64,000 bases of DNA from Psammoneis japonica (Eukaryota). Positions 3,909 to 52,845 of the stretch are shown here, piece by piece; the first letter of the stretch is position 1, and every line of letters starts with the position of its first letter. Under the pieces are notes generated by a model, which did not search any database, was not told the origin of the DNA, and was given only the letters and a program-made list of their open reading frames with translations. The position numbers were made by a program, and so were the translations under genes. The stretch lies in contig QPGO01000026.1 of assembly GCA_008632985.1 (NCBI GenBank), positions 248,001-312,000 on the forward strand, in the 5' to 3' direction.

Positions 3909-4245
3909 TGTCGCGGAACATGACTCAAGCGGGACTCAAGTGATTGGGTCCCGGTCACGAGTGAAGGGTCGTGCCACCGATGACCACAGAAATCGGAGCC
4001 GACCACGAATGCCGCAATCGATCTTGAGGAACAAGATCGATGAATCGAATGGCCGAGGAGCGGCGATTTGACAAGATCGATTTGGTAAGATTGATTTGGT
4101 AAGATTGGTTTGACAAGATTGAAGTCCAGAAGAAGTAGAAAAGCAGATCATAATTTAGCGAGAGTGAGAAATGTGAAGACTATTAATTTTAGTTTTGTGT
4201 GCTACTGACAAGGTGTTAGTAGTGTCGGCATCTGGTTGTCCAACA
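3909..4245 (+). repeat. 5' LTR of young Copia
   Basis: TGTCGCGG...GTCCAACA, repeated at 9390-9726. Confidence 0.97.
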
Positions 4246-4292
4246 CGATATATATCGACAGTTTGTGGCAACACTACATTCGAGAGTAGTAA

Positions 4293-6371
4293 GTGAGAGA
4301 AGCGATGAGCAAGGAAGAACAGACCTACGAGACTTCTTTGTCGTGGAGCGGCAAGAGAGAAGACTTCGAGAATTTTTTGGTGAAATTCGAGGCATTCGAG
4401 AGCGACCACGGTTGTGACGAAGCAACCGATGTGGATCTAGGAGATAAGCTTCTCACCAAGGCGGAATACGTGAATGGAAAGAAGAAAGTAACGCAAGCTA
4501 ATGGTACAGAGACCGAAGAAGACCTCACAAAGGAGGACAAGAGGTTGTACAAGCTGAACGCGAAATCATTTTCGAAGATCATCCGTGCGTTGCCTGAAAA
4601 CTTGATCAAGGCCTGCAAGAACCAAGGTGGACCCAAGAAGTCCGTTTATTTGATCAAGGAGTACCTCAAGAAACACTACTCGGAGCAGAATGTGGTAGAT
4701 GATTACCAAAACCTCTACAAGAAGAGGTTGGAGCTAGAACCTGGAGAGTTCGAGATAGCGCTGTTCTATTTCAACGAGTTGGAGGATATTAACTCCAAGT
4801 TGGGAAAGATTGATGAAAAGTATCGCTTAGATGAGCTTCAGTTGAAGACTGATATCTATTCAAAAGTCCCGGATCAAGGTAACTGGTCCTCTTTCAAGTC
4901 CGAGTATCGCAAGGACGGCGCGATGGAGAACATTGCCTACAGTGCGTTCAAGCAGCACTATGAACGGGAGTGGAAAGCTCATGGTCCACCAGGAGGATCT
5001 ACTACATCTATAGATCGATCTTCTGGAGAGGATAAGACCCTAACTATGAAGGTACAGGGTAGCAAGTTTTTCCCGGGTAATTGTGGGAAGTGTGGCAAGA
5101 AAGGTCACAAGTCAAAATTTTGTCCTGACAAGAAGAACGCCAAGACGAAGAAATTCGATGGCGATTGCTTTTATTGCGGCAAGCATGGACATAGAGCGAG
5201 CGACTGCTTCAAGAAGAAGAAGGATGAAAAGGAGAAAGACGAAGAAACGAACGAGGTTACACTCGGAGTGTTCGATTCCGTCGACTTGGTTGAGGAGGGT
5301 AAGGACCCTATTCCAGACTCCTTCTTCGATACCTTCGATACTAAGCCTGCAGTTCGAGACGATGAGTTCGAGAGAGAGCTTAAGAGGTGGGATACTCGGT
5401 CTGGACTGGGTTACGGCTACGATAGTAGCGGCGAACGCGCGCTGTCATGGTACGAATGGAGCGAGATGGCGGACGATGAGGACGAAGAAGACGATGACGG
5501 CATGAGTATGCCGGAGCTAGAAGGTCCTTTTGTTTCTGATAAGGTCGAGGATGAAAGTATCCCGCCCTTGGAACCGCGGTATGATTCCGACAGCGATTCG
5601 GATGATGACGAGTCATTAGAGCTGATCGGCTCTCAACGCAAGTGCACCAACTGTGACGGGCCTGGACATGTCTATCGAGGCTATCGCACAACGAAGAAAG
5701 TTCAAGACGAGGACAAGGGAGACGAGGAAGACAGTATCCCGCCCTTAGTATCTCGTGGCGGTTATGATAGCGACTCGAGCGACGACGAGTCGGTTGAATT
5801 CGAGGTTGTTTGCTCGTATTGCGGACAGCCTGGACACAAATTCTGCACTCCTTTCCAAGAGTTTTGGAATAACCCGGATGAAGAGAGCGATGATGACAGT
5901 ATTCCGACTCTAGAGAGTGGTATGGACTCGGATAGTGATTCAGAGTCCGAGTTTGATTACGATTCGGACGACGACTATGACGAAATACTGATGTCCGGTG
6001 CGCAGTATGAACCAGAACGTGGCGGTGTAAGGCTACTATTGGACTCTGGCTCGACAGCACATACAAAGAGGTCTGCTGAAGGGATGCGGAACCTCAGGGA
6101 AGTGAACAAAGTCATGAAGGACGCACACGACGGGAGTTCGGTAGCGAAGCTCCAAGGAGATTTTCCATTTACGCGTCAGAATGGGGACGGTACAGTAGTT
6201 ATTACTGAGATGTACGTCCAGCCAAATTTTTCACATAACATTGTGAGTCTGACGAAGCTATTTGAGAAAAATTGCAAACGAGCCATTGTTCTCGAGTGCC
6301 CTGATGGCACGGAATTAATTTTCGAAAAATCAGCGAAAGATGGCTGTTTTATATGGAAGTTGACTCGCTGA
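4293..6371 (+). CDS. Copia Gag-protease (likely start ATG 4305)
   Basis: CCHC knuckles CGKCGKKGHKSKFC and CFYCGKHGHRASDC. Aspartic protease LLDSGSTAH. Confidence 0.9.
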   Translation: MREAMSKEEQTYETSLSWSGKREDFENFLVKFEAFESDHGCDEATDVDLGDKLLTKAEYVNGKKKVTQANGTETEEDLTKEDKRLYKLNAKSFSKIIRALPENLIKACKNQGGPKKSVYLIKEYLKKHYSEQNVVDDYQNLYKKRLELEPGEFEIALFYFNELEDINSKLGKIDEKYRLDELQLKTDIYSKVPDQGNWSSFKSEYRKDGAMENIAYSAFKQHYEREWKAHGPPGGSTTSIDRSSGEDKTLTMKVQGSKFFPGNCGKCGKKGHKSKFCPDKKNAKTKKFDGDCFYCGKHGHRASDCFKKKKDEKEKDEETNEVTLGVFDSVDLVEEGKDPIPDSFFDTFDTKPAVRDDEFERELKRWDTRSGLGYGYDSSGERALSWYEWSEMADDEDEEDDDGMSMPELEGPFVSDKVEDESIPPLEPRYDSDSDSDDDESLELIGSQRKCTNCDGPGHVYRGYRTTKKVQDEDKGDEEDSIPPLVSRGGYDSDSSDDESVEFEVVCSYCGQPGHKFCTPFQEFWNNPDEESDDDSIPTLESGMDSDSDSESEFDYDSDDDYDEILMSGAQYEPERGGVRLLLDSGSTAHTKRSAEGMRNLREVNKVMKDAHDGSSVAKLQGDFPFTRQNGDGTVVITEMYVQPNFSHNIVSLTKLFEKNCKRAIVLECPDGTELIFEKSAKDGCFIWKLTR

Positions 6372-8500
6372 CGGATGTGTCCGAAATGACCGCAGACGTT
6401 TCCGATGGACAGAAATCTGGACAAAAAGAGTCGGACAAGAAAGTCCATGTTAACCGCGCACACATTTTGCTGAACCACATGGGAGAACGCGCGATGAAAA
6501 TGGCGGCAGCAGATCTCGGTTGGAAATTGACCGGTATACCCAAGACCTGCGAGTTCTGTGTCAAGGCAAAGGCTACAGCAAAGCCAACCGTGAAGGCTAG
6601 CGATAAGAAAGCGACCAAGCCTGGTCAGCGGCTCTACCTAGACACGTCAGGACCATACAAAGCGACGCGCGGCAAGAATCGATATCATGTGATGATAGTC
6701 GATCAACTTACAGATCGACTTTGGTCGATGTTCCAAGCAAAGAAAAATGGTTTTACGGACGATATCAAAGCTTTATTGACTAAGCTGAAGGGTCAGGGGT
6801 ACCCAGTCGAGTTCTTACGGATCGACAACGCTCCGGAATGGGGTGCACTCAAGCCAATTTGTGATGAGCATGGGATCACGATCGAGTATACCTCCCCTAA
6901 TACTCCGCAGTTCAACGCGGCAGTCGAGAGAGCGTTCCCAACAGTGCGTAATATGGCATACGCGGTACTGAAAGCATCCGATTTCGACGACGCAGAGCAA
7001 AGTCGGCAATGGGCGAATGCGCTGCAGGACTGCACTATCGTTCGTAACTTGGTCCCACGTGGGGACTGGAGCAATGCTTATGAACCATTTGGAGAAAAGC
7101 CACCCGTAAAAGCCGAAGACCTGGTAGAGTTTGGCGCAAAGGGGTGGATGGCCAAGAGAAACAAGATCAAGGCCAAGTTTCAAGATCGTGCCGAGGAGGT
7201 TCGTCGCGTAGGATACGCTGAGAATCACTCGAGCGATACGTATATTGTTCAAAAGTTATCAAATCGTCGTTGTGTGTTGACACGCGACGTGGTATGGGAG
7301 TCTAAAAGACGATATGATCACCTAGACCCCGAGACAGTGGTCGAAAAGCAAACTCCGCGAGTAACTTGGGCGGACGACGCAAGACCGTCAACAGTGGTTG
7401 AAGAGATATCACGCCCCTCTCAGTCATCCGCAGACGACCCCGACTTTCATGATTCTCATTCACAAATTGAGGAGGGAGAAGAGAGTGCAACAGACGGCGG
7501 GGAATCAACGGATAGCGAAGAAAGTGACTCCGAGATGGGTGCGCCACCTGACGGACCAGGACAGACGGATAAAGAATCAGCTGTGAATAGTCGATTGGAA
7601 CGCGAGTTGAGCAAGCTGAGGACTTCTTATAACCCAGCTGGTCTCCCAAGCGACGACGAGGACGAGGTAGAAGCGGTGAATATGGTCGCAGGATATGTTG
7701 ATCCGAAGAATGATCGCGAAGCGATGACAGGCGACGAAGCTGACGAGTGGTGGAAGGGTCTAGTCACAGAATACGATGGATTTTTCGACTTGAGAACTTG
7801 GATACTGGTCAAGGAAGCCGAATTGAAAGGTAAAAAGATATCCAAGCCGCTATCAACGAAGAACGTCTACAAAAAGAAATTACACGCGATAACAAAAGAG
7901 GTGCGGTATCGCGTGCGCAACTGCATTCGGGGGTTCGATATGATACCCGGAGTTCATTTCGATGAATCTTTTGCACCTACTCCGACGGATCATACTGTGA
8001 GACTCATATTGGCGATATCATTATGGATGCTGGAACAGTTGGAAGTCGATGATATCGACGAAGCCGAGAAGGAGTGGATTGTCGGGCATTTGTTCGATGT
8101 TGTGCAGGCATTTCTGAACTCAGAGATGACTGGACCACCTGTACATGTGCATCTTCCCCCTATGTGGAAGGAGTATTGCGAATATAAAGGTTGGGAATAC
8201 AACGAGAACGATCTTTTTTTGCTCGGAAAGGCGCAATATGGGCAAGTCGATGCCGCGAAGCGCTGGATTGATATGTTTGTCGGAATCATGACTGAAAAGG
8301 GTGGCGTCGAGCTTAAACGAAGCAAGACTGACCCTTGTGTGTTGTACCGTCATGATGACAAGGGGCAATTGGAGATTATCATTTTGATTTATGTGGACGA
8401 TGGTTTCATATGTGGGAGGCCGGAAGTCGTTAAGGAAGCCAAGGACTATTTGGCGAAGAGAGTTAAGATACTGGACATTGACGAATCGACACTCATTTAG
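6353..8500 (+). CDS. Copia Pol: integrase and reverse transcriptase (continuation after 1-nt frameshift)
   Basis: HILLNH...CEFC zinc motif, DDE core (YLDTSG, RIDNAPE, PQFNAAVER), RT DVVQAFL and IYVDDG. Confidence 0.92.
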   Translation: MEVDSLTDVSEMTADVSDGQKSGQKESDKKVHVNRAHILLNHMGERAMKMAAADLGWKLTGIPKTCEFCVKAKATAKPTVKASDKKATKPGQRLYLDTSGPYKATRGKNRYHVMIVDQLTDRLWSMFQAKKNGFTDDIKALLTKLKGQGYPVEFLRIDNAPEWGALKPICDEHGITIEYTSPNTPQFNAAVERAFPTVRNMAYAVLKASDFDDAEQSRQWANALQDCTIVRNLVPRGDWSNAYEPFGEKPPVKAEDLVEFGAKGWMAKRNKIKAKFQDRAEEVRRVGYAENHSSDTYIVQKLSNRRCVLTRDVVWESKRRYDHLDPETVVEKQTPRVTWADDARPSTVVEEISRPSQSSADDPDFHDSHSQIEEGEESATDGGESTDSEESDSEMGAPPDGPGQTDKESAVNSRLERELSKLRTSYNPAGLPSDDEDEVEAVNMVAGYVDPKNDREAMTGDEADEWWKGLVTEYDGFFDLRTWILVKEAELKGKKISKPLSTKNVYKKKLHAITKEVRYRVRNCIRGFDMIPGVHFDESFAPTPTDHTVRLILAISLWMLEQLEVDDIDEAEKEWIVGHLFDVVQAFLNSEMTGPPVHVHLPPMWKEYCEYKGWEYNENDLFLLGKAQYGQVDAAKRWIDMFVGIMTEKGGVELKRSKTDPCVLYRHDDKGQLEIIILIYVDDGFICGRPEVVKEAKDYLAKRVKILDIDESTLI

Positions 8501-8514
8501 GAATTGATTATGAG

Positions 8515-9552
8515 TTGAAGAAAGACGAACACGGTTGGTACTTCGAGTGCAGCATGCGCAAGTACGTGGAGAAGATGGTTGCGGAGTACGAACAACGCTT
8601 CAAGAAGACACTTAAGGACTACGAGACACCTGGGGAGCCAGGGAAGATATTGATGAAGGCGGACGAAGACCATGAGCCAGTCGAGCAAAACGGATATCGA
8701 GCCTTCGTCGGAAAGATCCTATATGCGATGTTGAAGGTCTTACCTGATTGCGCGAATGCGATTAGAGCGCTGACAATGCATTTGACGAATCCAACTAAGG
8801 ATCACTGGCACGCGCTGGACAGACTTATGGGACATCTGAAATTTCACTATCAGCCGTTGAAGTTGAGGTCACCTTTGGAATTAAGGAGCATAGGGATATT
8901 CGACGCTGAGTGGGGGACGGACAAGAATGACAGAAAGAGCATTTCGAGTGACATTTCCACACTGGGCGGTACGTCGTTAACTAATTGGCAATCGAAGAAG
9001 CAGACCTCTGTGGCGCTGAGCAGTTGTGAAAGTGAGACCATAGCGGGCACGGCGTGCGCGCAGAGCATACAATTCCAGAATCATTTATTGGAAGAGCTGG
9101 TAGGTACGGACATGTTGAAGATGCCGAGTTATGCGTACGGAGACAACGCCGCATCACTGTTTCTGGCTGTTAACAACCAAGTGGGACAGCGGACGAAACA
9201 CATTCACATTCGTGATAGATATTTGGGCGAGTTGGTTCAACGTGGAGAGATTGAACCACGTCATGTCAGTACGGAGAAGAACCCGGCAGATGTCAACACC
9301 AAGAACGCGAAGATCGAAACGCACAAGAGACTAGCTCAGAACCTGTATGACGGATTCGTGATGGTTGAACCGGAACCAATCAAGGAGGGTGTCGCGGAAC
9401 ATGACTCAAGCGGGACTCAAGTGATTGGGTCCCGGTCACGAGTGAAGGGTCGTGCCACCGATGACCACAGAAATCGGAGCCGACCACGAATGCCGCAATC
9501 GATCTTGAGGAACAAGATCGATGAATCGAATGGCCGAGGAGCGGCGATTTGA
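8515..9552 (+). CDS. Copia Pol: RT C-terminus and RNase H (after second 1-nt frameshift)
   Basis: DAEWG..DRKS, WQSKKQTSVALSSCESE, DNAAS, RTKHIHIR, NPADVNTK. Confidence 0.92.
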   Translation: MKKDEHGWYFECSMRKYVEKMVAEYEQRFKKTLKDYETPGEPGKILMKADEDHEPVEQNGYRAFVGKILYAMLKVLPDCANAIRALTMHLTNPTKDHWHALDRLMGHLKFHYQPLKLRSPLELRSIGIFDAEWGTDKNDRKSISSDISTLGGTSLTNWQSKKQTSVALSSCESETIAGTACAQSIQFQNHLLEELVGTDMLKMPSYAYGDNAASLFLAVNNQVGQRTKHIHIRDRYLGELVQRGEIEPRHVSTEKNPADVNTKNAKIETHKRLAQNLYDGFVMVEPEPIKEGVAEHDSSGTQVIGSRSRVKGRATDDHRNRSRPRMPQSILRNKIDESNGRGAAI

Positions 9553-9726
9553 CAAGATCGATTTGGTAAGATTGATTTGGTAAGATTGGTTTGACAAGAT
9601 TGAAGTCCAGAAGAAGTAGAAAAGCAGATCATAATTTAGCGAGAGTGAGAAATGTGAAGACTATTAATTTTAGTTTTGTGTGCTACTGACAAGGTGTTAG
9701 TAGTGTCGGCATCTGGTTGTCCAACA
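9390..9726 (+). repeat. 3' LTR of young Copia
   Basis: Copy of 3909-4245. Confidence 0.97.
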
Positions 9727-10207
9727 TTGCCACAAAAGTGCATGACATGTCACAAATCCTAGAGTGGAGCAAATCTCCACCCGTGGAGATTTGCTCCCCT
9801 GATGGTTGAAGGGTCAAGAAAATTTCTGTCACTGGCAAGCACCAGAAATGGATTGGCGCCCACCATCTTCTGAGTCAGTGATGCAGAGTCATGTGTGAAT
9901 GCATCACTGGTGTGACCAGCAATGGATTGGTGTGGTGATGGGTGAATCCATTGCTGGCAAGCACCACACAAATGGATTGGCACCCACCATCTTCCGAGTC
10001 AGTGATGCAGCATGACAGGCAAATCCATTGCTGGCAAGCACCTGCAACAGGGTGATGGACTTGTGCAACTTGATGTGATGCAACATTGTGGGATGAATGA
10101 TCTTGTTTCTGTGCAAATTAAAGATGCGCAGTTTCACTCTCCATCCCTGTGCATCTCTTTCAGTCAAACCACAATGAGATGAGCTCCTTTTGCCAAGCAT
10201 GATGGCT

Positions 10208-13200
10208 TGTGCCCTGTGCATGCACCAGGCGCTGAAAAAGCAGATGTGTTGCGACTTTGCCTTGTGAAAATTATGAGCCAGTTCATGAATGGAGAAAATG
10301 GAATCGCGCAAAAGGGAATCTTGCCAAGTTCCTGTTCGCTCACATTTTGGATTGCATCAATCAATCATGCACTCGCATCATGGATCGTGCAAATCACACC
10401 ATCACGCACCATGCACGAGTGATGTCATCATGTGGAATCACGCTGCTGTCGTGGGCCAGACGACAGGCTAGAGTGCTTCGCACAGTTGCTCTCCCAGCAT
10501 CATTCTGGAATTGCCTGAGACATGGAGCCATGCCCTCCTGTGGTCGTGCTTCCCAGGTGCGTGTTGGCAACACTGCATTGCCACGCACAAGAGGCTTGTG
10601 CACGGTCTCACCGTGTTGTCCAGTGACGGGGCATGCTGCACACTCCCCCATGATCAGGGCCGTCAAGTGACAGAATGTTTTGCTGGTGACAGGGTGAAAC
10701 CTGCCGTAGATTGCACGTGTCTGTCAGCGCTCTGTTCTGGATGCGCAACGTGCCGTTGTCATGTGCACGGACAACTCTGGCTGGTCCTGCACAACAGTCA
10801 GAACCGTGCTTAGAAGATTGTTCTTGTTTTACAAGCACCAATTGCCCTGCAGCATGTTTGCACTCCTTGCGGCTCTGATTCTCACGCTTGTTGTTTAAGT
10901 GGACAAGCTTCCACTTTCTGGTTTCTGTGTGCTTCCACTTAGCACGATGGGCAACAGACAAAACCGCATCATGTCCGAAGACCAATTGCACGGGGCTTGC
11001 ACGCGTGGTCGTGTGTGCCGTGGCTCTGACAGCGAAGGCCACTGTGGAGAGGATGCCACTCCACAGGTCATCTTCACCCAGCTCCATGTCTTGTGCTGAA
11101 AAGGAACGTGCCATGTCACCAAGTGTCTGGTGTGCACATTCCACTGTGGCACTCGCCTGTGGATTTTGCTTGCTTGTGGGTTTCTTCAGGATTCCATGGT
11201 CCTTTTTGATCATCTGGCAAAATTCTGCCACAAATTCTGTCCCACAGTCATAAACTACCTGGGTTGGCCACGGATGTCTGCACAGCCACGTTAGTTCCAT
11301 GATGTTTGCCATGATGACTGCGCATTTCGTAGACACTTCTTCAATCTCAAACCACCCGGTTGCCGGGTCAATCATGGTGACCGCCCACAATTGCAAAGTG
11401 TCCTTCCCGCATCTTTGAATTTTATGGGGCCCTGTCATGTCCATGCATGGAGTCTCCCATGGAATTAACTCAGCGACCTTTTCTGGCAGCTTCCCATGAC
11501 GCTGCACATTCGGCGTTTTGTCCTCTGGCATCGATCGCACTCAACGCACATAGAATGCACCGCAGACCTCATGCCAGGCCAGTGGAAGTGCTGGGCAATG
11601 GACATTTCTGCACGTGTCTAACCTGGATGACACAATGTCTCGTGGCACCATTCAATCAGCGGAACCTGCAATGACTGTGGTGCTGCGATTTTGTCCTTGT
11701 GACATGTCAACTGTCATGATGACCCTCCCCCATGATGCGCGTGAATGGAGCAGTCGGGTGAGTCCTTGGCTCGCGAGAGCAGGCGCTTGTCCTTTTGTTG
11801 TTCTTTTTGAATGCACTTGAAGCTAACAGGCAGAGACATGTCGTCTTGCGCATCTGCATTAAAGGCTTCATGCAAAGGATGACTCAATGGAGTGTCTTTT
11901 ACATCCAGATTGGCTTCGGAAGGCAAGCTCGGTGCTGGCCAAAGGCGACTAAGAGCGTCAGCAACCAGGTTGTGGGCACCCTTAACATGGCATAATTCGG
12001 GACCGCACTCTTCGCATGTTGGCCACCAGCGCATGATGCACTCGGCATTGAACACTTTGCAAATGAGATTTTTATGATCAGCACATGTAATCACACAATG
12101 ACCAAGGAGAATTGTTCGAAATTCTTTCAACATCACAATGGCGAGCAATTCTCTCTCCATTGTTGCACAATTTAATTGCGCACCATCAAGCTTTCTGCTG
12201 TAAAAGGCGATGGGTTCATTGTCTTGGGACATGACCGCTCCCAATTGACATTTAGAGGCATCGGCATGCAACTCAAAGGGTTCATTAAAATCAGGATGTG
12301 ACAACAAAACATCATCCGACATTGCCCGTTTAACGGTTTCGAACGCCTCGTCTTCAACGGACGTCCACTCCCACTTAAGACGGGTTCCAATCCCAGGTGG
12401 GACTTTTTGTGACATTGGGGCCGTAGAATTCTACGTGCGAGCTCCGCAGCAAAATTGTCAAGCAATGAAAACATGAATGATCGCCAACAGAAATAGAGGC
12501 AATTTTGCGAACGTGTCTCCTCCTCCAAACTTGAAGTGCGTTGTTTGTGGTCTGCCCGGGTGCATTCTTTAGATGTTAAAGAACACACCCAGTGCATGTT
12601 TGTTGTCACAAATGTAGAAAACAGAAAGCCTTTGGCATCGCAAAAGAGGCAGTGTGGAACAATTTTTTACAATGGAACACGCAGAAATGCACGTGCAAAA
12701 CATGCGACGGATGACAAAAAATGACATTGTCACAGTCCAGCAGTGCAAGGTCCCACCTAGAGCTGGAACGCGTCTTAACAGTTTCACTTGCGAGTCGTGT
12801 TGGCGGAGCCAAGACTTCAGAACATCTAATCCATGTGTCGCGGCAGCAGTTCACCATGCCAACAAATGATCGCAGGTCGCGTTTGTTGGCTGGGGTTGCA
12901 ATTCTCTTGATGGCGTCGACTTTATTGGGTGTTGGTTGCATTCCGTCTCTGTTGACCAGACAACCCAAGTGTTCTAATTGGGTTTGACAGAAGTGAGATT
13001 TAGTTGCGTTAACTTTTAGTCCTGCTTTCTGGACCCTCAATGACACTTCTTCAAGTTTGTTGAGGTGATCTTCACAGGTGCCTTTCATCACAACGAGAAG
13101 GTCATCTAAAAGTGCGCTTGAATGAATGATGGATCTTCAAACAAGCCTGACATGCGTTCTTGGAAAATGTCTGGCAAACTGCACAACCCCATGGGCAATG

Positions 13201-15909
13201 CCTGCATCTCATGCTTGCCCCACAGGAAGATGAGCGTGCACAGCTTTTTGCCATCAGCATCCAATCGGATGTGACAATGGCCCATGTTTAAATCCAGAGA
13301 TGCAGCCCACATGAAGCCTTTGAGCTTAAGTGGCATGTCTTGGACATGAGGAATGGGATGAGGCAATCGCTTGATCCATTTGTTCAGCTCTCTGAAACAA
13401 TTGACAAATCGCACTGTCAAATCTTTCTTCAGCATGACAAATGATGGAGCTGCCCACTGGGATCGGTTGGCACGTTTAAGAACACCGACACGCACCAGGT
13501 GCTCCACTTCTTGCACAGCGTAGGCTCGCACACACAAGGCACTTTATGCGGATGAGCGTGGTGTGGCTCTGCGCCCTCCTCAAGTTGGATGTGGCAGGGT
13601 TCTCCTTCCACTCTCCTGACGTTCCATCAAACAAGGACTCATGGCGTTTCAACAGTGCCAAAAGGTCATTTCGTTGAACAACAGAAAGTCCTGTTGCCCC
13701 TCGCGTCATGTCCTTGAGGCATGCTGGCGCACACTTAGCGTCTGAGACACGCGAAATCCAGTCGGTTTCCAAAGACAAGGCTTCTGGATCTTGAAGATAG
13801 AAGGAGGTTTCTGCTGTGGCATCTGCGTGCCTCATTGGCACTTCTCCATTTGCTGGTGGCCACTCTGTCATCTGTTTAGAGAAGACAATGTCAACACCTT
13901 GTGTCTCCAGAATGTCACGTCCAACAATCATGTCGCACTTGCCCAACTTTCCATTGTGTGCGTGGACGGCATGCTCAAGTTCTGCAGTTTCAGACAATTC
14001 TGGCAACCGGAATTTAACGGCGCAGTTGTTGGCCACACCAAACGAGCCTGCCACCGTAGCCCAGTTTGTCTCAGCTGTTGAACGGCTTTGCAAACGCTTG
14101 CAGCATCGACCATCTGGTAGAGTGCTGCTGGCGCTGCTGTCCAGCAGTGCCTTAATTGTCGGAGTCTTGCCCCAGCCATGCTTGGCATTCACAGCCATAA
14201 ACAAGATTGGAGCAAGATGAGTCTTTTTAACTTGTTTGCAGGATTGGCCTACAACACGTGTACAATGGCAATTCAGTTGTTCATTTGCACATTCATCCAA
14301 TGTGTTAAAACTGCCTGTGTCATGTCGGCCCCCTTCTCAGGCATCTGAGTCTTCGGAATCACTTAAGTTGAGGTCGCGGAAGTGATCAAGCTCCTCCTCG
14401 CGTGCCTTGCACTTTTTCTGAGCGTTGGCGAAGCACTCCTAGATCTTTGATCCGATGATGGCATTGATGTCTTCCTCATTCTGAGGTTTTTTGTTGGGCT
14501 TGCTGCCTCCGTTGCAAGAATGTCCAGTCTTGACACGTTTCACGTGGTGCTTGAGCTGACGGCAATCCTCCGTGTGATGTCCACAGTTGGTCCCGTGGAG
14601 CATGCACGACTTCTGGGTGTTCTTCTGGTTTGTGATCAACGACTCAGAATTGTCCGTTCTATGGCCCCGCTTGCGTGGGACCTTGGTGTGTTGGTCCAGG
14701 TTACCTTCGGCGGACTCGACCTGCTCGATGCGCTCGCAGAATTGTACAAACTCGGCTGCAGCATGAGCCAACGGGTCAAAATTCTGTAGCATCATGAACT
14801 TCTGCTGCCACGCATTTGGCACGCCGCACTCGAACATGTCACACAGTTTGTCATTGGGTGATGGTGCCGGTGCATCTCTGCCCTCCGTCACGGGTGGAAA
14901 CTGAGAGAGACAGCCGTTAATTTCAACAGCCCTCGCAACACAGTCACGAGCAGAGACCTCTGCGGGTTTGCGCATGAAGCGCCTTAAATGACGCTTCTGC
15001 AACAGCACCGCCCTGTGTGGGAAGATACTTTCCTTTAGCTTCGCAACGCATGCTGCACACGCAGCGTTGGTTTCGGATGCCTGCATGTCAGCGGCATTTT
15101 TGAATGTTGTCAGAGCATTGCCCTGAAGAAGATCACGCATGAGTGCATGTTTCGCTGGCCCGGTTGTCATGTTTTGCCCCTCGTGCATGCGATCCAAGTT
15201 GCACAAAAAGATCAAGAGTTGCTTGCATGTTGCCGCAGAAAGGTGCGGCATGCCCATCTCATGCGTTGGACTGTCAGGATCAGCAGGATCATCATGCAGC
15301 TTGAACGTCTGGTGCTCACCCTGCTGGAGCTCTTTCTTCTCCGGCCGTGCAAATGGAGTCGGCGGCTTGATCCGCTTCTTCATGGTCGTTTTGAGATTTG
15401 TCGGTCCCGCCAACATTTCGCAGTTTCGTTTCTGCAGATTTTGTCACCTCACACAATGTGCGGGAGTGATGTTGCTGTGCCCCATGCATGTGCCAGGCGC
15501 TGAAAAAGCAGATGTGTCACGACTTTGTCGTTGTGGAAATTGTGAGCCAGTTCATGTGTAGAGAAAATGGAATCATGCGAAAGGGAATCTTGCCAAATTC
15601 CCATTCGTTCGCATTTTGGATTGCATCAATCGATCGTGCATTTGCATTGTGGATCATGCAAATCATGCCATCACGCGCCATGCACGAGTGATCTCATCGT
15701 GTGGAATCATGCTGCCGTCGTGGGCCGGACGACGGGCTAGAGTGCTTCACACGGTTGCTCTCCTAGCGTCCTTCTGGAATTGCCTGAGACATGGAGCCAT
15801 GCCCTCCTGTGGTCATGCTTCCCAGGTGCGTGTTGGCAATGCTGCGTTGCCATGTGCAAGAGGCTCATGCACGGTCTCGCCGTGTTGTCCAGCAACGGGA
15901 CATGCTGCA
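10208..15909 (-). mobile_element. Hypermutated Ty3/Gypsy LTR retrotransposon
   Basis: LTRs 10208-10640 and 15476-15909. Minus-strand gag 14439-15416, protease ALLDSSASS, RT (WAAPSF, LDLNMGHCHI, LPMGL), RNase H (HADASK, AFYSRKL, ADALSR), integrase (NPQASATVE), PPT GGGGGAG. Tyr codons largely replaced by His/Cys. Confidence 0.93.
12378..12775. mobile_element. MITE with AGAC...GTCT TIRs inserted in the Gypsy RT (partly mutated)
   Basis: Imperfect ~27-bp TIRs. Removing it and one TA copy restores ASETVKWEWT in frame. Same ends as 38203-39000. Confidence 0.88.
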
Positions 15910-16115
15910 TTTGTTCAGGTGGGTTGCCCCCTCTCTCCACCTCCTTGCACTGACAACTGCTCCTGCTTGCAGTGGCAGAACCTCATCCAGCACATTGTGG
16001 AACTCTTTCAAAGGAGGCTCCTGTCACACAAGCTTGTGTTTTTGCGACGGTGACCCGTCCCAAGGAAGATGGCAAAGATTCTTCTGACAATGGCGTCAAT
16101 GAATGAGAGATGTTT
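15910..16115 (+). pseudogene. TA-free remnant paralogous to the C-terminus of gene 16600-18807
   Basis: FVQV..LQWQNLIQHI..TQA.V..VTRP..NE versus FVEV..WQWQNLVQHV..TQARV..LTRP..NE. Confidence 0.75.
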
Positions 16116-16599
16116 GCAGTTGAAACACCCTTCTTGCAACGTCCAATTGTTCTCTCCCAAGTGACTCGCACCACCTGAATTTTATCCTCTGCTAGCTAGA
16201 GTAGCTAGCTGGCAGCTGCTAGGGCCTGCTCTAGCTCTAGTAGAGATCCGAGAAGAGTTGAGTCTCGTGAAACTGTGGCTCACCAGCCAAGACTCACTTG
16301 CGGCGGATAAGATCAATTCATAGGACTATTTCTACGTAGAAATGCCGTAGAATGGAAGCTTCAACTTCACGCCAAAAACGCGAAGTTGAAAGTCCGTGCG
16401 CGCGTCGCGAGGATATCCTCATTAGTTTTGTTCTTTGGAAGAGTCGTCATATCGCTCTCAAGACTGCAATCAAACGATCCAAATGCTAACAAGCCTCTCA
16501 TACAACCGTCTTATACCTGTTTGAAGCCATAGCGAGACTTCGTTTCGTCAAAGAAAGAGGAATAATCCATCGCAGCGCACAAACCTACCGCGAGAGAGC

Positions 16600-18807
16600 A
16601 TGAGTGAACCCACATCAGCCGCTCCGAGTCGTGCATTGGGTGATTGGGAGCGTTTCGTCGCAGAGTCCAATGGGATTGCGTCGGAAAGGGCAACTGCAAC
16701 AAGGCGTGAATCGTTTGGAGATATTGCACCCAACCAAAACCTTTCTCCACAAGATGCAACCTTTCTGCAGGCTGTACGAAATTCCGCACCGAGTCATCCA
16801 GACGAGTTTAGTCACTCGGATGATGATGAACGATATGATGGTGCGAATCGTTTTCAACAGGAATCAAACCAAAGAGATATCGCCGAAATCGCTACCAATT
16901 GGCGTTATCGAAGGCTTGCTCGTACGATTCATCACGTTCCGGACGACATCGCTGTTGAACACAGCGATGCTGTGCTTGCTGGTACGATTCGTCAGGTCCC
17001 GAAAGCTGCTGATGAAGAAAGTGCTGCGAATCGTTCTCAGGAAGAATCGACCAAAAGAGATGCCGACAAAATTGCTGGTAATTGGCGTTCGTGGGTGGAA
17101 ACTAGCGAGAAATATCCAGAGCTTGCTAGTACGATTCATCATGTCCCAGAGGTTGATGAAGAAGAAAGTGATGCTGTGCTTGGAGTGGCATTGTACAATT
17201 ACGAGGCATTTTACAACATGGAACACGGAACTGCTAATATTTGCATGCTACAGTGCTCCTCGGCAGGTATTAGTGGATGGGCATCCTGTGTGCTGAACGA
17301 GGAGCAGCCGCCGAGTCGTGCTTGCCAAGGCGACTCCAAGCAACCAGCCGCTGAGAACATTGAATCGTCAAACGCCAAAGAATCTTTCAATGTCAACACC
17401 AATGACAGAGAGGAGGTCCAAAAAATTGAAACAAACATTGTCACAAGCCCCAGTCGCAGAACAAAGGGCAAAGAGGAAGAAGACAAGGAACTCCAGGTTG
17501 CTCTGTTACGATCCATGGGCGTCAGTGCTGAACTTGATCGACGTAGTAGCAACGTCTCGAACGATTCTAGCACTGTCCAGTATGAAATCGAGGATGATGA
17601 CATTGACGATGAGGAGCTCTACTACTTTGATAGCCACAGCGATGCCTGGGCTATACCGAAGAAGGATGGGAAATCGAGTGAAGAAGGCAATAGAGTGACT
17701 AAGTCAGCTACTGTGACTAGCAGACACGATGAAGAGAGCGAAGCAAATACGAAGGAAACCAAGAGAGAAGAGTTGAAGCTAGGCTACGATTGTTCCCTGA
17801 AGATTGAAGATGTGACCACGGACTCTCCGCCTTCACCGTCTCCTCCACCTCCTACTAACCGTTTTGCTTCTGCAGAGGCAAAGAGAGAATCTATTATTCA
17901 GGATACCAAGACTGACGATAAGAAGCCACCTTTTGGTTCTTCCGAGAGCAAAGCAAATGCGAAGAAAACCAAGAGAGAAGAGTTGAAGCTAGGCTACGAT
18001 TGTTACCTGAAGACTGAAGATGTGACCCCGGACTCTCCGCCTTCTCCATCTCCTCCACCTCCTACTGCCCGTTTCGCTGCTGCAGACAACAGACAAGATG
18101 CAAAGAGCGAATCCAATGCTCAGGAAACCAAGACTGACGAGAAGAAGCCAATTTCTGGTTTTTCCCATAATGCTAACAAAACCCCTGTTTCCTTTCCTTC
18201 CCCCGTCACTGTCGAGACCAACACCATGCAAATTGAAGAGAGCCAAGCAAAGGAGGAAACAAAGATAGAAGAGAAGAAGCTAGCTCGTGATGGTTCCTCC
18301 AAGCAGACTGACGAGACGTCACCCGCTTTTGCGGCCGTGGATCCTTTAACGTCCAGTGAGCACACGACAGAGACTACAAGCGAATCGACTGAAGAGCATA
18401 TGGTCCCAAGCATTGAAGCCAGTGCCACGTCCTTGAAATCGGTCGAGCTGTCGCCTCCAAAGCCCATTAGAAGCATGATGGGTGCCGGTGAAGACATGAA
18501 CGATCATGTCCAAGACCTACCAAACAATCACAGCGACTTGTCTGACAGTAGCTATGTTGCTGTTTGCGACACTGCTTCCTCAAACGAAGAGCAAGATGGC
18601 TTTGTCGAAGTGGAGCCGCCCAACTGTCCACCGCGAAGCAGTGTCAACCGTTCCAGGTGGCAGTGGCAGAACCTCGTTCAGCATGTTACGGCAGGATTGG
18701 CCAAGGAAGCTTCCTTTACACAAGCCAGAGTTTCCGATACCTTGACCCGTCCCAATAAGGACAACGATTCGGACGAGGATGCCAATGAATATGACCTTTG
18801 TGATTAG
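16600..18807 (+). CDS. Acidic, largely disordered protein with internal repeats, a UIM-like motif and LIR/AIM-like motifs
   Basis: 735-aa ORF with normal composition. Repeats TIHHVP..SDAVL (x2) and KREELKLGYDC..DSPPSPSPPPPT (x2). EEEDKELQVALLRSM. Confidence 0.8.
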   Translation: MSEPTSAAPSRALGDWERFVAESNGIASERATATRRESFGDIAPNQNLSPQDATFLQAVRNSAPSHPDEFSHSDDDERYDGANRFQQESNQRDIAEIATNWRYRRLARTIHHVPDDIAVEHSDAVLAGTIRQVPKAADEESAANRSQEESTKRDADKIAGNWRSWVETSEKYPELASTIHHVPEVDEEESDAVLGVALYNYEAFYNMEHGTANICMLQCSSAGISGWASCVLNEEQPPSRACQGDSKQPAAENIESSNAKESFNVNTNDREEVQKIETNIVTSPSRRTKGKEEEDKELQVALLRSMGVSAELDRRSSNVSNDSSTVQYEIEDDDIDDEELYYFDSHSDAWAIPKKDGKSSEEGNRVTKSATVTSRHDEESEANTKETKREELKLGYDCSLKIEDVTTDSPPSPSPPPPTNRFASAEAKRESIIQDTKTDDKKPPFGSSESKANAKKTKREELKLGYDCYLKTEDVTPDSPPSPSPPPPTARFAAADNRQDAKSESNAQETKTDEKKPISGFSHNANKTPVSFPSPVTVETNTMQIEESQAKEETKIEEKKLARDGSSKQTDETSPAFAAVDPLTSSEHTTETTSESTEEHMVPSIEASATSLKSVELSPPKPIRSMMGAGEDMNDHVQDLPNNHSDLSDSSYVAVCDTASSNEEQDGFVEVEPPNCPPRSSVNRSRWQWQNLVQHVTAGLAKEASFTQARVSDTLTRPNKDNDSDEDANEYDLCD

Positions 18808-19223
18808 AATCCGTGTGGGAGAAGGAGCTGCACGGTATATTGCGTGATGTATTTTCTGATTTCTTCAGCAATGGCTTGAAGCGTTCAAGCTCATGATCTG
18901 CTCCGTTCTTTCTGGTAGGGTTATCATTTAGAAGAGAACGCCGTGCACGGTGCCAATTTCTCTATTTTTAATTCTATATCTTAAACGTCTAAGTAAGAAG
19001 GCAATATAGAATGTATATGATCTTCTCGACTCCCTGCCATTCCTTTCATAGATGCTATGAACTACCACGTCTTGCTGAAATCCAACTTGAAGTTCGTTGC
19101 TTTCGCTCAGTCTCGTACACCCACTTCTTCTTCTTCTATATCAAGGTAGCCGAGGTTTTCAACTCAAATCAGATTAACTTTCAGTTGGCATGAAAATCCG
19201 TTTCAAGTACTTCTAGCAACATC

Positions 19224-19958
19224 CTAAGTAACAAGCCAAAGGACAATACTAGTCATGACTATCATCACTTTTGCTGCTGTGGACAACCACGCGGTCGTCC
19301 ATGCCGAGGAACAATCAACATTGTTTGCGCATGCGACTCCATTTCCGCTTTGTTGGTCCACACTTGGTGCAATATGCAGCCACTCATTTCCATAGGTACA
19401 ATTCTCGAGGGGAGTTGTAGCAAACTTAAAGCATAGGTTTGCATCATTCATGACGCAGATACCCACACACCACGGCGGATTAGAATCGGATCCGGTTGTG
19501 GGGAATTGTGCAATACTGTCCATTTCGTCCTCAATCTCGTACAAATTGTTGGATCCCTTGTACTCGGTTGAAGCAAAGGTTGGACAAAGCGTTCTGCATG
19601 CAATTCTGGAACATACCGCAATTTCGTTGGCACGGCTGTCGGATAAAACCACAGTAGCATCACCAAGGCTTGTATTGGCAAAGCTTTCGTTGTGGTAGGA
19701 ATCAAACGTGTAAAACATGCTTCCGCTGCTACTCAACAGATTGCATGACTTTTGTTTAAAGGTGGTGACGCTGCAATTTTCTTGCTCGAGAAATTGAATA
19801 TCCACCACTTTGCCTTCTCGTACAATGTCAAAGGTACTCGTTGTATCGGACGAAAGGAGATTGAGGCGAGTATCTTGACGAACGAGCGCAAAATCGCAAG
19901 AGACGAGACTCGTGTGAACAGTGAATAGCAACACAAACATTAAACACAATGATGTCAT
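19224..19958 (-). CDS. Putative secreted, membrane- or GPI-anchored Cys-rich protein
   Basis: Signal-peptide-like MTSLCLMFVLLFTVHTSLVSC, many Cys, hydrophobic C-terminus, normal Tyr content. Confidence 0.7.
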   Translation of the reverse strand: MTSLCLMFVLLFTVHTSLVSCDFALVRQDTRLNLLSSDTTSTFDIVREGKVVDIQFLEQENCSVTTFKQKSCNLLSSSGSMFYTFDSYHNESFANTSLGDATVVLSDSRANEIAVCSRIACRTLCPTFASTEYKGSNNLYEIEDEMDSIAQFPTTGSDSNPPWCVGICVMNDANLCFKFATTPLENCTYGNEWLHIAPSVDQQSGNGVACANNVDCSSAWTTAWLSTAAKVMIVMTSIVLWLVT

Positions 19959-22189
19959 GATGACAGTGATGGCAACAATGGTCTTGGAAAAAGAAAAGAG
20001 TTTTGGCGATGAGGACAATAAGTCGTGTCAAAACACATCAAGACAACCGCGATGAACGCCATCTTTTCTGCCTTCTGCCTTATCTGCTCCTTCTGCTTTC
20101 TGGCTGGGTCCCGAGTCAGTTTATTGCGTCAGTCCCGAGTTTCAATTTTATCGTCGTCCAACTGCTTTTCTGTCCGCGATGCGAATGAACCGACCGACCA
20201 AAAGACGGCAGCAGAATCATTGCGCTGCGGTGACCAGTGCATCTTCAAAAGATCCACCAGTTGCACACACTGCAGTTCCCTTGATGACACCTTTCAACAG
20301 TGGTGTGATCGGGGGTTCCAAGTTGTGTGGTGGTGTGGTGTGGCACCACTTCTTGAACTCTGGAGGTGTTGGGCTCTGTTGGGAGAATCTCACATGTCCC
20401 CACTGGGGTGATTTGTTGGTCCATTTCTTCAACTTGTGTGGGTGGATCATCATTGAGAAGTGTGGTGGCAATGTTTGTGCAAAATGGCGGTGTTGCTTTC
20501 TTTGGCATCATCGAGCTTGGGGAAGAACTGAGCACGTGTGTGGCGCCTTCAATCTGTTCATGCACTCTGCCCTCGTGTGTTCAGAGCATCTCCACACCTG
20601 CTCCTTTGCATCCACTGTCCACCTGCCTGGGGTTCTTCCCAGCTTTGGCATGGTGTTCCATCCTGTGAGAAGGCAGCAAGTGGTCAGTGCTTCCTGCAAC
20701 AACAACTTCCAGCTGGCATTTGATGGGAACCCTGCCTTCGGCCACTCACATGGGCTTGCACATTTTTTGTGAGCAGATTCCATCCATCCCTGGATGTGAC
20801 ATTGGAGATGTGCAATGGATTAATCCACAGTCTGTGTGGGTCTCCATTAAGAAGGAGTCTTCTTCACATTGCACTGGAACGTGCATTTTTGTCGGGAGAC
20901 ACCAGCTCAACTTGACAAGACAGACAGAACTCCTGCAAAGATTTGGCCCATGTCCTGGTGACCAGTGGCACCATTTTCTTGCAGTCCAACTGATGTGCTT
21001 GCCCTGGCACTCCCAGCTCCAGAGCTGCACCAACTCATGCTCTGCAGCCATTTCATGTCCCATCACAAGAGGGCATGTCTCATCCTTCTTGCGAAAATGT
21101 GGTTTTCAACCTCCTGCTCATCATCTCTCCCCTTGTTGACATCCTTTTCTCTTGCTTGATCTTCTTGGATGTGGTGTTTGCCTTGTCAGCTTCAGCACAT
21201 GTGTTCTTTTTTTCTTCTTTGCCGCTGTCGTCAGGGGCAGGGGCATCAACGTGCACTTGCAGCACAGCTTGCTGTTTTCTTTTTTTCCCCTTTTTTGGCA
21301 GCAAGGACCAGAGGCAGCTTGAGTCTCAACTCATGTGCTCTTTTGGCCAGATGCTTCACATGCATTTGATTGGAGCTTCCATGATTGCCCACATTCTTGT
21401 TCATGTTGTTGTCATCCAATGGGGCCAGCGGGTTTGGGAGGTGATGTCACTTTGTGCTTTGTGCTGTGCTGCTAAAAAAATCACCCAAATTCAAACAAAT
21501 CTGCTGTGATTGAATTTTTCCCTCAGTTGCTGCATGAGCACAAAAGAACAGCAGTGGCCATCACATTGAAAATGCCCAAATTTCAGCAATGAGAGAGAAA
21601 ATTTCCACAATTAATTTTTCACCCAATGTGACATTTCCAGCTTTGTGAAGCAATTTGTTCTGTGCCAATGAGCAGGCTGCAGAAGAATGACTCCAGTTGC
21701 CACATGATGTGGGCCCATCAAGACATTTGCTGCCAGCAGTTCAGACACTCTTGAAGCAGTGTCTGTAGCCAAAACAACACCAGTGCACAATCCAAAACTT
21801 TGAACAGGGCCAAAGATGCAGCAGAAATTGTCACAAGAAGCTGCTTTTTCCTGGTGTGTTGATGGACATTGAACAAGCACAGCCCTTCATTTTGGGAGTG
21901 CATCTCAGTCTCTCAATCATGGCACAGCAGGCAGCCAGCTGGCAGCAATGACAGCAAATGGTTTGAATTGCACTGCTTTGTTGGTTTGTGACAGCCCTGT
22001 TGTTGGCAGCACTTCTTCTTGCCACCACAAATCAAGTGTGGCAGGTCCAGTTTCATTGACCCTCTCTGCTGCACCCTTTTCCTCATGTCCATTTTCAGCT
22101 GTGACATGTGCTCCAGCTCTGGGTGGCACTGTCTGTGTGACATGTTTGCACTGCAGAATTCTGTGTGCATGCTCTCTGCAGCTCATGCT

Positions 22190-25100: not shown

Positions 25101-26400
25101 GCTCTCTGCATTTTTGTGCTTGAAGAGTCTCCCCACCATTCATCAGTTTGTCAGCCCAAATTTTGCCTGTTTGCATCCTCATGAGGCAATGGCTTGCTGG
25201 ATCACCAAGGATGGCCCAGACTGGGGATCTCCACCACAGCTCCCTTCTCAGCTGGCCTGAGAGCCGGTGAAGTCACTCATTTCTGCACCACTTTCATGAC
25301 AAGAGATGAGGCCAGACTGGAGGCAACTTCTGTGTTCTTGATTTGCTCTTGCAAAAGTCTGAGTTTGTCTTGACCCTCTTCAAGTTTTGCTCCAGTTGAT
25401 GGGGCAGGGCCAACCAAAGAATTGTGCTTTTCCTTCAGTGACTCCTTTTTTCTCTCAGCATCGCTGCTCCTTTGAATTGGATCAGTTTGTCATCTTCATG
25501 AGCAGAGGAGTGTGTTGCATTGTCGTCCTTGTTTCCTGCTGATCCTGCTGATTTGATGGCATTTTTGAAACATTCTGCCACTTGCTCCATTGCTGTTTTT
25601 GCTCATTTGACATTGCCATCTTTCTTGGGGGACTTGGAGGAGGTCTTGGATGACTCTTGCTTCTAGTCTGCTTGCTGTGTTGTGCTGGCTGATGTTCAAT
25701 TTCCAGCTTTCTTCCATTTCCCATTGACCATCTTTGTGATGATTTTGAGTGGCTTCTCTTGTTCTCTTTTGAGGTTGTCTCACACCTGTTTCTGCATTGC
25801 ACCATTTGTTGCAACACACCGCAACACCCAATGCCTTGAACCACTTTGCCAAATCTGACCCTGAGCAGCACAGCACTTCTGATTTAGGTTGTTGATTGAT
25901 TGCATTGCTTTTGCATGGACTTTCCTTTGGAATGCAATGACATGCTCATTTGGCCTGTTCCATTTGATGTTGATGTGATGGAAGAGCATTTTTTCTTTTT
26001 TGATGTGGGGTCCAGCACCTGGTCCCTCATCAAGCAGTGTTGGAGTGTGGTGCAGGTCTTGGATGAATTTGTCTGGTGAACACTGGACAAACGTGCAGCA
26101 GCGCACCTGTCCCAGGACCTGCTCTGCAAAGCAGTGTTGACATTGAGTGAGTTCTGCAGCATTTTTGTTGATGTCATGAGGTGTGCACACTGAATGACTT
26201 GCAAGAGTGGCACAGAATGAAGTGCGCCATTGCACCAAGGACCTTCTTCTCCTTGCTCCAACTCTCCAATTTAGTTTGGCTGTGATTCTCACCTTGAGCA
26301 CCTCATGGACTTCAACATTGATGTGAGTTGCCACTGGATGCTTCTTTTGATCATTCCAGTTGAATGTTGGTCATTTTCCAGCAGGTCCACATGTCATTCT
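22190..26400 (-). mobile_element. Decayed Ambal-like LINE (ORF1, endonuclease and RT remnants)
   Basis: Residual motifs QDPRKALL, HCILWID, PLLQDFG..QVLQG..PPPGT, SSPFG..K.GA, LVDNTEL, WEGGIRATGGALVP. Ends approximate. Confidence 0.6.
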
Positions 26401-26871
26401 CCACTGCATTCCCAGCAAGTCAGGGTCTTTGACATCCAGGGCATGATGGATGGCACAGTGCAGGAGGAGGGGAGTGTCTGTCATCATTTTTGAGCTGCAA
26501 CACAGCCATCTGAAGCATTTGGTGGGTGGGTGGACTGGCGTGGGACATTGGGTTCCTTGCCACTGTGAACTTTCCCACCTCAATCTCTTTTGTCATGCCA
26601 ACCTGCAAAAGAACTCTGGAATTTTTGTCATGCCAACCTGCAAAAGAACTCTGGAATGACAAATTTGCACAGAAAAAGCACCAGGGCCCCAACAGAAATG
26701 ACAAGAAAGTCTGGAACATCATGATTTTTGTTGCTGATTTTGTGCTGAATTCTGCACTGTTTCTGGATGTTCCAGACTTTGTTGGGCTTTCCACCAGAGC
26801 CCTGGTGCTGATTCCACACAAATTTGATGTTCCAGAGTTTTTTTGCACAGCAGCGTGCTGTTGAGGTTTTG

Positions 26872-27053
26872 GTCAAAGTCTGTCAGTGGGATTTTTGGCT
26901 CCCCTGTGACAATGATGTGTGCGGCACAGCAGGTTGGCTGCATGTTCTTGGTGGCTGGCTCTTGTCAAAGTCTGTCAGTGGGATTTTTGGCTCCCCTGTG
27001 ACAATGAAGTGTGCGGCACAGCAGGTTGGCTGCATGTTCTTGGTGATTGGCTC
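26872..27053. repeat. Tandem duplication, ~92-bp unit x2
   Basis: GTCAAAGTCTGTCAGTGGGATTTTTGGCTCCCC... at 26872 and 26964. Confidence 0.9.
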
Positions 27054-52600: not shown

Positions 52601-52845
52601 CTCCTAACCTGCGACAACTCTCATCTGAGAGTTGGGAGATGTCGACAGAAGGTTGAGCAGCAACTGCATTGTTGGCAGCAGGACCAACAACAGTGACAGA
52701 ATTGACAAAGCTGCCAATGTCTTGTTGCACTAGATGTTGCAATTGCGAGCAGAAAAAGGGGAGAAGTTCTCCAAAAGAAGGGCGGGAAACTGCACGCGCA
52801 AGCAAAGAGCGCGTGAATCGCGCATGAGTTTGCACTGTGTTGACA

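Follow-up and report, generated by a model that had tools for sequence, protein, structure and literature searches.

The stretch of DNA analysed here (the window; 64,000 nucleotides, contig QPGO01000026.1, positions 248,001 to 312,000 of the forward strand, assembly GCA_008632985.1 of Psammoneis japonica) contains, at 10208–15909, a dead Ty3/gypsy long terminal repeat (LTR) retrotransposon that lies on the minus strand in repeat-rich surroundings. Its LTRs are direct repeats with TG...CA ends and 87–88% identity; in the element's own orientation, 15476–15909 (434 nt) is the 5′ LTR and 10208–10640 (433 nt) is the 3′ LTR. The internal region (10641–15475) is decayed and its reading frames are broken, and Pfam domains for a reverse transcriptase (RVT_1, 12606–13136), an RNase H (RT_RNaseH_2, 11714–12430), and an integrase open reading frame (ORF) (rve, 10608–11540) are found on the minus strand in the order reverse transcriptase, RNase H, integrase that is typical of Ty3/gypsy pol. 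A preliminary description of this locus proposed that the two LTRs, identical at insertion, have since come to differ through independent TA to TG and TA to CA changes. Our analysis suggests a broader explanation, to which we assign a probability of roughly 0.7: two context-specific transition processes, one acting at CpG and one at TpA, rewrote the gypsy element and the older repeats around it, while sparing host ORFs and a very young copia element.

Depletion of both dinucleotides is confined to repeats and is graded with nesting. The TpA observed/expected ratio (o/e) was below 0.2 in 80 of 125 bins of 500 bp, and TpA and CpG o/e were correlated across these bins (Spearman 0.79). Seventeen bins presented TpA o/e < 0.2 together with CpG o/e > 0.6, and none presented CpG o/e < 0.3 together with TpA o/e > 0.4, indicating that TpA was lost before CpG. 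The blocks at 21–27, 31–34, and 55–61 kb had TpA o/e of 0.02–0.06 and CpG o/e of 0.02–0.17, with TpG/CpA at about 1.5–2.2, and the block at 39–53 kb had TpA o/e of 0.02–0.24 and CpG o/e of 0.43–0.73. The host-like ORFs at 16525–18807 and 27777–29296 (TpA o/e 0.47–0.48; CpG o/e 0.87–0.89) and the young copia (TpA o/e 0.63; CpG o/e 1.19) were spared. Over the whole window ApT was 0.9 and AA/TT 1.2, against TpA o/e of 0.02–0.23 in depleted sequence.

Decay follows the nesting order in three nests. Two older repeat remnants, both poor in CG and TA, flank the gypsy element (9727–10207 on the left and 15910–16182 on the right) and together had TpA o/e of 0.04 and CpG o/e of 0.22; there is no TA between 15765 and 16182, and TA is dense from 16183. 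The corresponding TpA and CpG o/e were 0.10 and 0.73 for the gypsy LTRs, 0.23 and 0.69 for the internal region, and 0.31 and 0.81 for a younger insertion of about 400 bp inside gypsy (12374–12773), which contigs of other gypsy copies skip (12373 to 12774). Within a copia-like element of older date, the island at 38 kb presented TpA o/e of 0.69 and CpG o/e of 1.5.

The direction of TA loss can be read from conserved residues of gypsy pol. We aligned 150 homologues of the gypsy RNase H ORF to the element by tblastn and kept columns with at least 8 homologues and at least 60% agreement; the element retains the consensus residue in 234 of the resulting 312 columns. Tyr was retained in none of 15 consensus-Tyr columns (His in nine, Cys in five, and Leu in one), and 14 of these 15 conserved codons now read CAY or TGY (Y, pyrimidine). 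Other consensus residues were kept in most columns (Pro 28/29, Gly 26/27, Trp 9/10, and Arg 19/26), and CpG-type changes turned Arg into C (2), W, H, and Q. Further TA to CA changes account for Leu to Pro (3), Leu to Ser (3), and Val to Ala (2). In the young copia, which served as control (14 homologues, minimum 4 per column), Tyr was retained in 19 of 24 consensus-Tyr columns (Fisher P = 7.7e-7 against 0/15 in gypsy), while a copia remnant at 36–38 kb retained it in 0 of 8. Because conserved Tyr was lost to His and Cys in gypsy and was mostly kept in the control, TA was the ancestral state and was then replaced by CA or TG. Since the coding strand carries both Tyr to His (9) and Tyr to Cys (5) changes, editing of sense RNA alone would be insufficient.

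Other copies of the gypsy family, which is clearly highly repeated, were compared by placing contigs of three sequencing runs on 9000–28999 at 80% likeness (6436 contigs of run X1 were placed). Summed word depth, which does not equal copy number, was 7,130–60,572 over gypsy and 58–94 in most single-copy bins. Among the best-supported 40 of 780 family-variant places, a non-random sample, 35 fell in gypsy. A TG or CA of the window corresponds to TA in the other copies in ten of these 35 rows and to CG in seven; four rows show the converse of the latter, with CG in the window and TG or CA in the other copies; one TG/CA double accounts for two rows, a transversion of a TA of the window for one, and other changes for 11. 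Where the window has TG or CA, family depth was mostly TA at 14387 (10054 of 11986), 14574 (7525 of 8275), and 13131 (961 of 961), and TA was in the minority or absent at 14313 (816 of 5403), 14496 (374 of 2756), 14434 (63 of 8254), and 14409 (0 of 14064 in run X1). At seven internal sites nearly all family depth was CG where the window has TG or CA (e.g., 14322, 7546 of 7770). A 30-letter contig end by the inner edge of the 15476 LTR, compared by eye, has TA three times against CA in the window and CG once against TG. A relative of 14280–14709, 82–88% like gypsy, was also found at single-copy depth (an X1 contig of depth 63 and a 494-nt contig of the smaller run X2 of depth 161); TA and CG are kept in it at sites that read TG or CA in the window copy, and it may represent a less decayed and possibly expressed copy, the kind of run X2 being only guessed.

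Related sequences from public data indicate that low TpA is not a trait of this lineage of elements. Among the best 80 of 507 confirmed metagenome matches, a sample that leans towards intact copies, all gypsy loci had TpA o/e of 0.58–1.06, compared with 0.10–0.23 in the gypsy element of the window; seven of these 80 combined CpG o/e < 0.3 with normal TpA, indicating that TpA and CpG decay are separable. Nine of 85 homologous proteins covering at least four Tyr columns have no Tyr there, mostly presenting Cys or His instead, and their overall Tyr content is 0–1.3% against a median of 3.7%. These Tyr-free gypsy-like predicted proteins (P0019, P0030, P0035, P0052, P0061, P0122, P0131, P0140, and P0144) come from JGI/IMG, ENA, Logan, and NCBI, showing that the same footprint of TA loss exists in other public sequence, possibly from the same organism as the window.

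The TpA process prefers RTAY (R, purine) and largely spares TTAA. Surviving TAs were YTAR in 42 of 75 cases in gypsy and 80 of 140 in the remaining depleted blocks, the unmutated reference giving 106 of 558, and RTAY in 3 of 75, 3 of 140, and 187 of 558, respectively; this reference set is a different sequence, and only large effects are reliable. ATAT was absent from all three depleted sets and occurred 58 times in the reference set, ATAC/GTAT, GTAC, and ATAG/CTAT were nearly gone from the depleted sets, and TTAA was the least lost (0.5–2.1 times the reference density). A strand rule in which the target A is followed by a pyrimidine failed on polarised Tyr codons (TAT to CAT 8, TAT to TGT 2, TAC to TGC 3, and TAC to CAC 1), and the flank preference is consequently not assignable to a strand.

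Most of the differences between the two gypsy LTRs represent CpG decay, and at most about a third of the pyrimidine–purine (YR) differences could be TA-derived. The LTR alignment presented 55 differing columns (51 transitions, 3 transversions, and 1 indel), and 44 of these 55 are interchanges among CG, TG, CA, and TA. The LTRs share TG at 45 sites, CA at 30, CG at 11, and TA at one; they differ as CG versus TG or CA at 21 sites (lost only in the 10208 copy at 13 and only in the 15476 copy at eight), as TG versus CA at ten, hereafter discordant sites, and as TA versus TG or CA at three. CG is thus retained in one LTR at 21 of 34 variable YR sites, the most frequent class and one that the preliminary description leaves unmentioned, and the 10208 LTR contains 19 CG and 2 TA, the 15476 LTR 25 CG and 3 TA. 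The three TG/CA triplets quoted in the preliminary description (10215/15483, 10223/15491, and 10333/15602) are present, as are its two TA sites (TA 10272–3 versus TG 15541–2 and TA 15764–5 versus CA 10495–6), to which we add a third (TA 15559–60 versus TG 10290–1); its statement that the LTRs differ mostly as TG versus CA does not agree with ten such sites against 21 with CG in one LTR.

No other gypsy copy able to polarise the LTRs was found elsewhere within the window. Contigs from the sequencing runs polarise some LTR sites: read by eye, a 30-letter contig end inside the LTR carries CG at five positions that are occupied by TG or CA in at least one of the two LTRs, and at 10305/10307 the 10208 LTR retains CGCG against TG TG in two contigs. 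None of the 40 best-supported variant places coincides with a discordant LTR site, and contig ends stop 1–2 bases before two such sites. An apparent CG in another copy opposite TA 15559–60 depended on a contig joint read by eye and on indels in the alignment, and was given no weight. The CpG losses private to the 10208 LTR are one-sided (12 to CA and one to TG), while those private to the 15476 LTR are balanced (four to TG and four to CA); the 12:1 ratio hints that an enzyme or replication was involved, and not slow deamination of both strands. A strand-specific TCG rule for CpG loss in the LTRs was unsupported (a 3′ A accompanied 2 of 16 CG to CA changes, and a 5′ T accompanied 1 of 5 CG to TG changes).

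A second diverged repeat pair, at 35877–36114 and 52608–52845 (89% identity over 238–240 nt), presented CG in both copies at six sites, CG versus TG or CA at ten, discordant TG/CA at seven, and TA versus CA at one. The seven discordant sites compare with 2.0 expected if all derived from CpG (P = 0.0045), and pooling both pairs gives 17 against 6.7 expected (P = 0.0006). The 238-bp repeats probably terminate an old copia-type element on the minus strand (35877–52845), which is split by nested insertions, including a LINE-like (long interspersed nuclear element) piece and the unmutated island at 38–39 kb.

These patterns are best explained by two processes, whose direction, dinucleotide specificity, restriction to repeats, and gradation with nesting are shown by the data. 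One converts CpG to TpG or CpA, most simply by deamination of 5-methylcytosine (5mC) in transposons presumed to be methylated; it is still under way in gypsy and is the source of most LTR differences. The other converts TpA to TpG or CpA, an A:T to G:C transition at TpA on either strand, and has run ahead of CpG loss to near completion in gypsy. Its signature is the one measured on chromosomal DNA of Bigelowiella natans (Mettrop et al., 10.64898/2026.01.13.699255), and it may be enzyme-driven here. Both would act on chromosomal DNA after integration. Three independent lines, namely the conserved Tyr codons, the other family copies, and the flank-specific survival of TA, support well a TA to TG/CA process in the element and across the window; the nesting gradient, the surplus of discordant sites, the presence of both outcomes on the coding strand, and the B. 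natans precedent make it likely that this process acted after integration. Of the earlier proposal that the changes are chromosomal and post-integration rather than due to RNA editing, the rejection of sense-RNA editing alone stands on the both-strand outcomes, and the timing is likely rather than demonstrated.

Several observations weigh against this interpretation, beginning with the gypsy LTR pair, which is weak evidence for independent TA loss. The background pairwise transition rate outside YR dinucleotides (6 of 184 columns) predicts 2.4 TA-versus-TG/CA sites from the 75 concordant TG or CA sites; the three seen match it (P = 0.44) and therefore carry no signal of their own. The ten discordant sites exceed the 4.7 expected under a uniform CpG-only model (P = 0.023), an excess that could fit independent loss of ancestral TA and equally uneven rates among CpG sites; it would leave room for about five TA-derived sites, at most about five of the 34 variable YR sites, each of the ten being unpolarised. 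Four of them (G__C twice and A__C twice) fit a TA origin well, their flanks yielding GTAC and ATAC, which are strongly depleted. At least four others (T__T twice, T__C, and G__A) fit it poorly, one of the two TA outcomes being rarely seen there. In the second pair, six of seven discordant sites have TCG/CGA-type flanks, and the TA alternatives at these six (TTAA, CTAA, TTAG, TTAT, TTAC, and GTAA) include the loss-resistant contexts TTAA, CTAA, and TTAG. Target-site duplication was not found at the gypsy ends (TGGCT left, TTTGT right), which may reflect recombination of the element or rearrangement of its flanks; the pair of direct repeats is confirmed, and its origin in a single insertion, taken for granted in the preliminary description, is unproven because no duplication is visible. 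The sampling of family sites was non-random, as given above, and at several sites (14313, 14409) the TG or CA of the window is common to a large part or the whole of the family depth. Finally, all recognisable depleted elements are retroelements, with which editing during reverse transcription or inheritance from a mutated source copy remain compatible; no DNA transposon was found by Pfam among 79 long ORFs of depleted blocks, and chromosomal and complementary DNA (cDNA)-stage editing are thus inseparable by this route.

Against this background, we regard it as quite improbable that the sister LTRs differ mainly by TA to TG in one and TA to CA in the other, independently and after integration. 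Besides the discordant excess and the four R__C sites, this reading draws on the outcomes in the 10208 LTR (TG:CA 1:12 at single-loss sites and 5:5 at discordant sites; Fisher P = 0.05) and on there being only two or three TA per LTR. It is contradicted by the 21 sites with CG in one LTR, the background level of TA-versus-TG/CA sites, the contigs with CG at five LTR sites and TG TG at 10305/10307, the unfavourable flanks of at least four discordant sites, and the small number of YR sites assignable to TA; wherever the differing LTR sites could be polarised against other family copies, these have CG, TG, or CA rather than TA, the outcome that the preliminary description itself named as refuting it. 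The TA process of the preliminary description thus holds for the element, as seen in Tyr codons, on both strands, and in family copies, and not as the main source of the LTR differences. An unlikely alternative is that TA was lost before insertion, either in a mutated source copy mobilised in trans or during reverse transcription through deamination of RNA and minus-strand cDNA, with CpG decay as the sole cause of later LTR divergence. It would explain why the LTRs share TG or CA at 75 sites against at most ten discordant ones, why most family depth has the TG or CA of the window at some sites, why position 10284 is CA in both LTRs and TA in two contigs, and why every recognisable depleted element is a retroelement. 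The grading of depletion with nesting in three nests points instead to time of chromosomal residence rather than a single event; moreover, TG and CA outcomes on the coding strand would require two different substrates, 84–100% of family depth has TA at three sites, discordant sites are in excess in both repeat pairs, and the same signature arises de novo on B. natans chromosomal DNA according to Mettrop et al. An artefact, in which miscalled modified bases or a mis-polished assembly produced false TG or CA at CG and TA, might be suspected from a 565-N gap within the window and an assembly platform that is not known, and is extremely improbable. The substitutions alter conserved residues as real mutations would, and X1 contigs (word depth about 64) match the depleted blocks with no differences at 17975–24463 (6489 bases) and one at 24745–26617 (1873 bases), indicating that the pattern is no basecalling or assembly artefact, with the limit, which counts against our interpretation, that the assembly may have been built from X1.

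Cytosine offers well-known examples of selfish DNA being hypermutated in particular sequence contexts: fungal repeat-induced point mutation (RIP), APOBEC editing, and 5mC decay. RIP changes CpA to TpA in repeats, and TpA consequently rises. The window shares with RIP a repeat-inactivating transition hypermutation with a dinucleotide signature; however, it is opposite in sign, with TpA down to 0.02–0.1 and CpA/TpG up to about 2, and the host is not a fungus. ADAR, a metazoan enzyme, prefers a 5′ U, and APOBEC alters C, not A. Editing by such enzymes also yields deaminase-type transition clusters in integrated retroelement copies, but ADAR editing of sense RNA gives TA to TG only on the coding strand, while TA to CA is the commoner change here (9 His versus 5 Cys). 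Decay of 5mC at CpG agrees with the window in that CG to TG/CA changes are limited to repeats and the sister LTR or the family majority still has CG; the 12 CA to 1 TG of the 10208 LTR is not predicted by slow spontaneous deamination of two strands. Transposon methylation dependent on DNMT5a is known in a diatom (PMC9998398).

The closest parallel is a TpA-specific A:T to G:C process reported only in 2026, from one rhizarian alga and two viral inserts (10.64898/2026.01.13.699255). In B. natans mutation-accumulation lines, 231 of 302 new mutations fell in two integrated viral regions, where all GC-biased mutations were TpA to TpG/CpA and arose in some lines only (10.64898/2026.01.13.699255). 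Their rate, close to 6e-7 per site per generation, marks a process some 1000 times faster than the genome background. TpA-poor coding sequences of that alga are enriched for reverse transcriptase and DDE domains, and an ADAT2/TadA-like DNA adenine deaminase was proposed as the enzyme (10.64898/2026.01.13.699255). Both systems change TpA only to TpG/CpA, target foreign or selfish DNA while sparing host genes, and leave a lasting TpA depletion footprint with a gain of CpA and TpG; enrichment of reverse transcriptase among TpA-poor coding sequences is a further likeness. They differ in host (a chlorarachniophyte versus a probable diatom, i.e., a stramenopile), in targets (giant-virus and virophage inserts versus LTR and other retroelements), and in depth (Rho 0.45 for the B. 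natans viral region versus TpA o/e of 0.02–0.1 over blocks of 5 to 7 kb in the window). The CpG decay overlay and the preferential loss of RTAY with sparing of TTAA are features of the window only, neither being reported for B. natans; the words CpG, diatom, LTR, retrotransposon, and TTAA are absent from the text of the preprint. A literature search that left most subscription journals outside its scope found no report of TpA hypermutation in diatoms.

The gypsy element may thus represent the recently described TpA process in a new lineage and a new class of targets, with an added flank preference and a CpG overlay. It is in our judgement about evenly balanced whether diatoms possess a DNA hypermutation system that is targeted and specific to TpA and that mirrors fungal RIP, clearing TpA from resident retrotransposons more quickly than methylation clears CpG and preferring RTAY while sparing TTAA. 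If they do, A:T to G:C editing of selfish DNA, taken together with Bigelowiella, would be a defence spread across the SAR (stramenopiles, alveolates, and Rhizaria) supergroup and would call for a DNA adenine deaminase with sequence specificity, or for an equivalent activity that modifies thymine, for the identification of which the flank preference would be a concrete constraint. A signature near completion on retrotransposons of a probable diatom would show that the process extends beyond a single strain and beyond viral inserts. Such a process would also affect annotation, as loss of TAA and TAG creates long false ORFs, conversion of Tyr to His or Cys hides old transposons from domain searches, and two hypermutable dinucleotides inflate ages obtained from LTR divergence.

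The TpA-poor blocks between 20000 and 61000 contain long ORFs on both strands, up to 989 aa and without Pfam domains (e.g., 41018–43984 on the plus strand), which are probably chance frames because TAA and TAG are nearly gone and TGA is the only stop left. Six of 79 long ORFs in depleted blocks matched Pfam (E-value up to 0.01), four of them with transposon domains: RVT_2 at 36915–37619, a weak Exo_endo_phos (APE endonuclease) match at 40442–41014, and weak gag_pre-integrs and SH3_retrovirus matches (copia gag and integrase pieces) at 47620–49682. Weak matches to Phage_zn_bind (26812–27234) and Focal_AT (39374–40177) were taken as chance. The ends of the insertion at 12374–12773 match 38203–38271 and 38941–39000 (60–70 nt, 90%), and the bin that holds this insertion (12335–13001) has the highest summed depth in 9000–28999 (60,572). 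The small element shared by 12374–12773 and 38203–39000 is a very abundant repeat that matches neither an Rfam family nor a tRNA; Rfam and ARAGORN scans of the 64-kb window found nothing.

Two features of normal composition lie to the right of gypsy. The ORF at 16525–18807 (plus strand), probably a host gene, is intron-free and encodes 760 aa, acidic and rich in Ser and Pro, without a Pfam domain; its dinucleotides are normal, it contains internal tandem repeats at 16839–17174 and 17734–18165, and contigs of run X2 cover it. The best named matches of an ABC-transporter ORF at 27777–28430 are from diatoms (Seminavis robusta, 55–62%, and Helicotheca tamesis, 55%), the next named match being at 36%; on the evidence of this one gene, the host would be a diatom or closely related to diatoms. 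To the left of gypsy, the young Ty1/copia element used as the unmutated control (3909–9726, plus strand) is nearly intact: its two 337-bp LTRs have 100% identity, and its ORFs encode 692, 731, and 356 aa. The element interrupts old TpA- and CpG-poor sequence and looks like a very recent, possibly active insertion.

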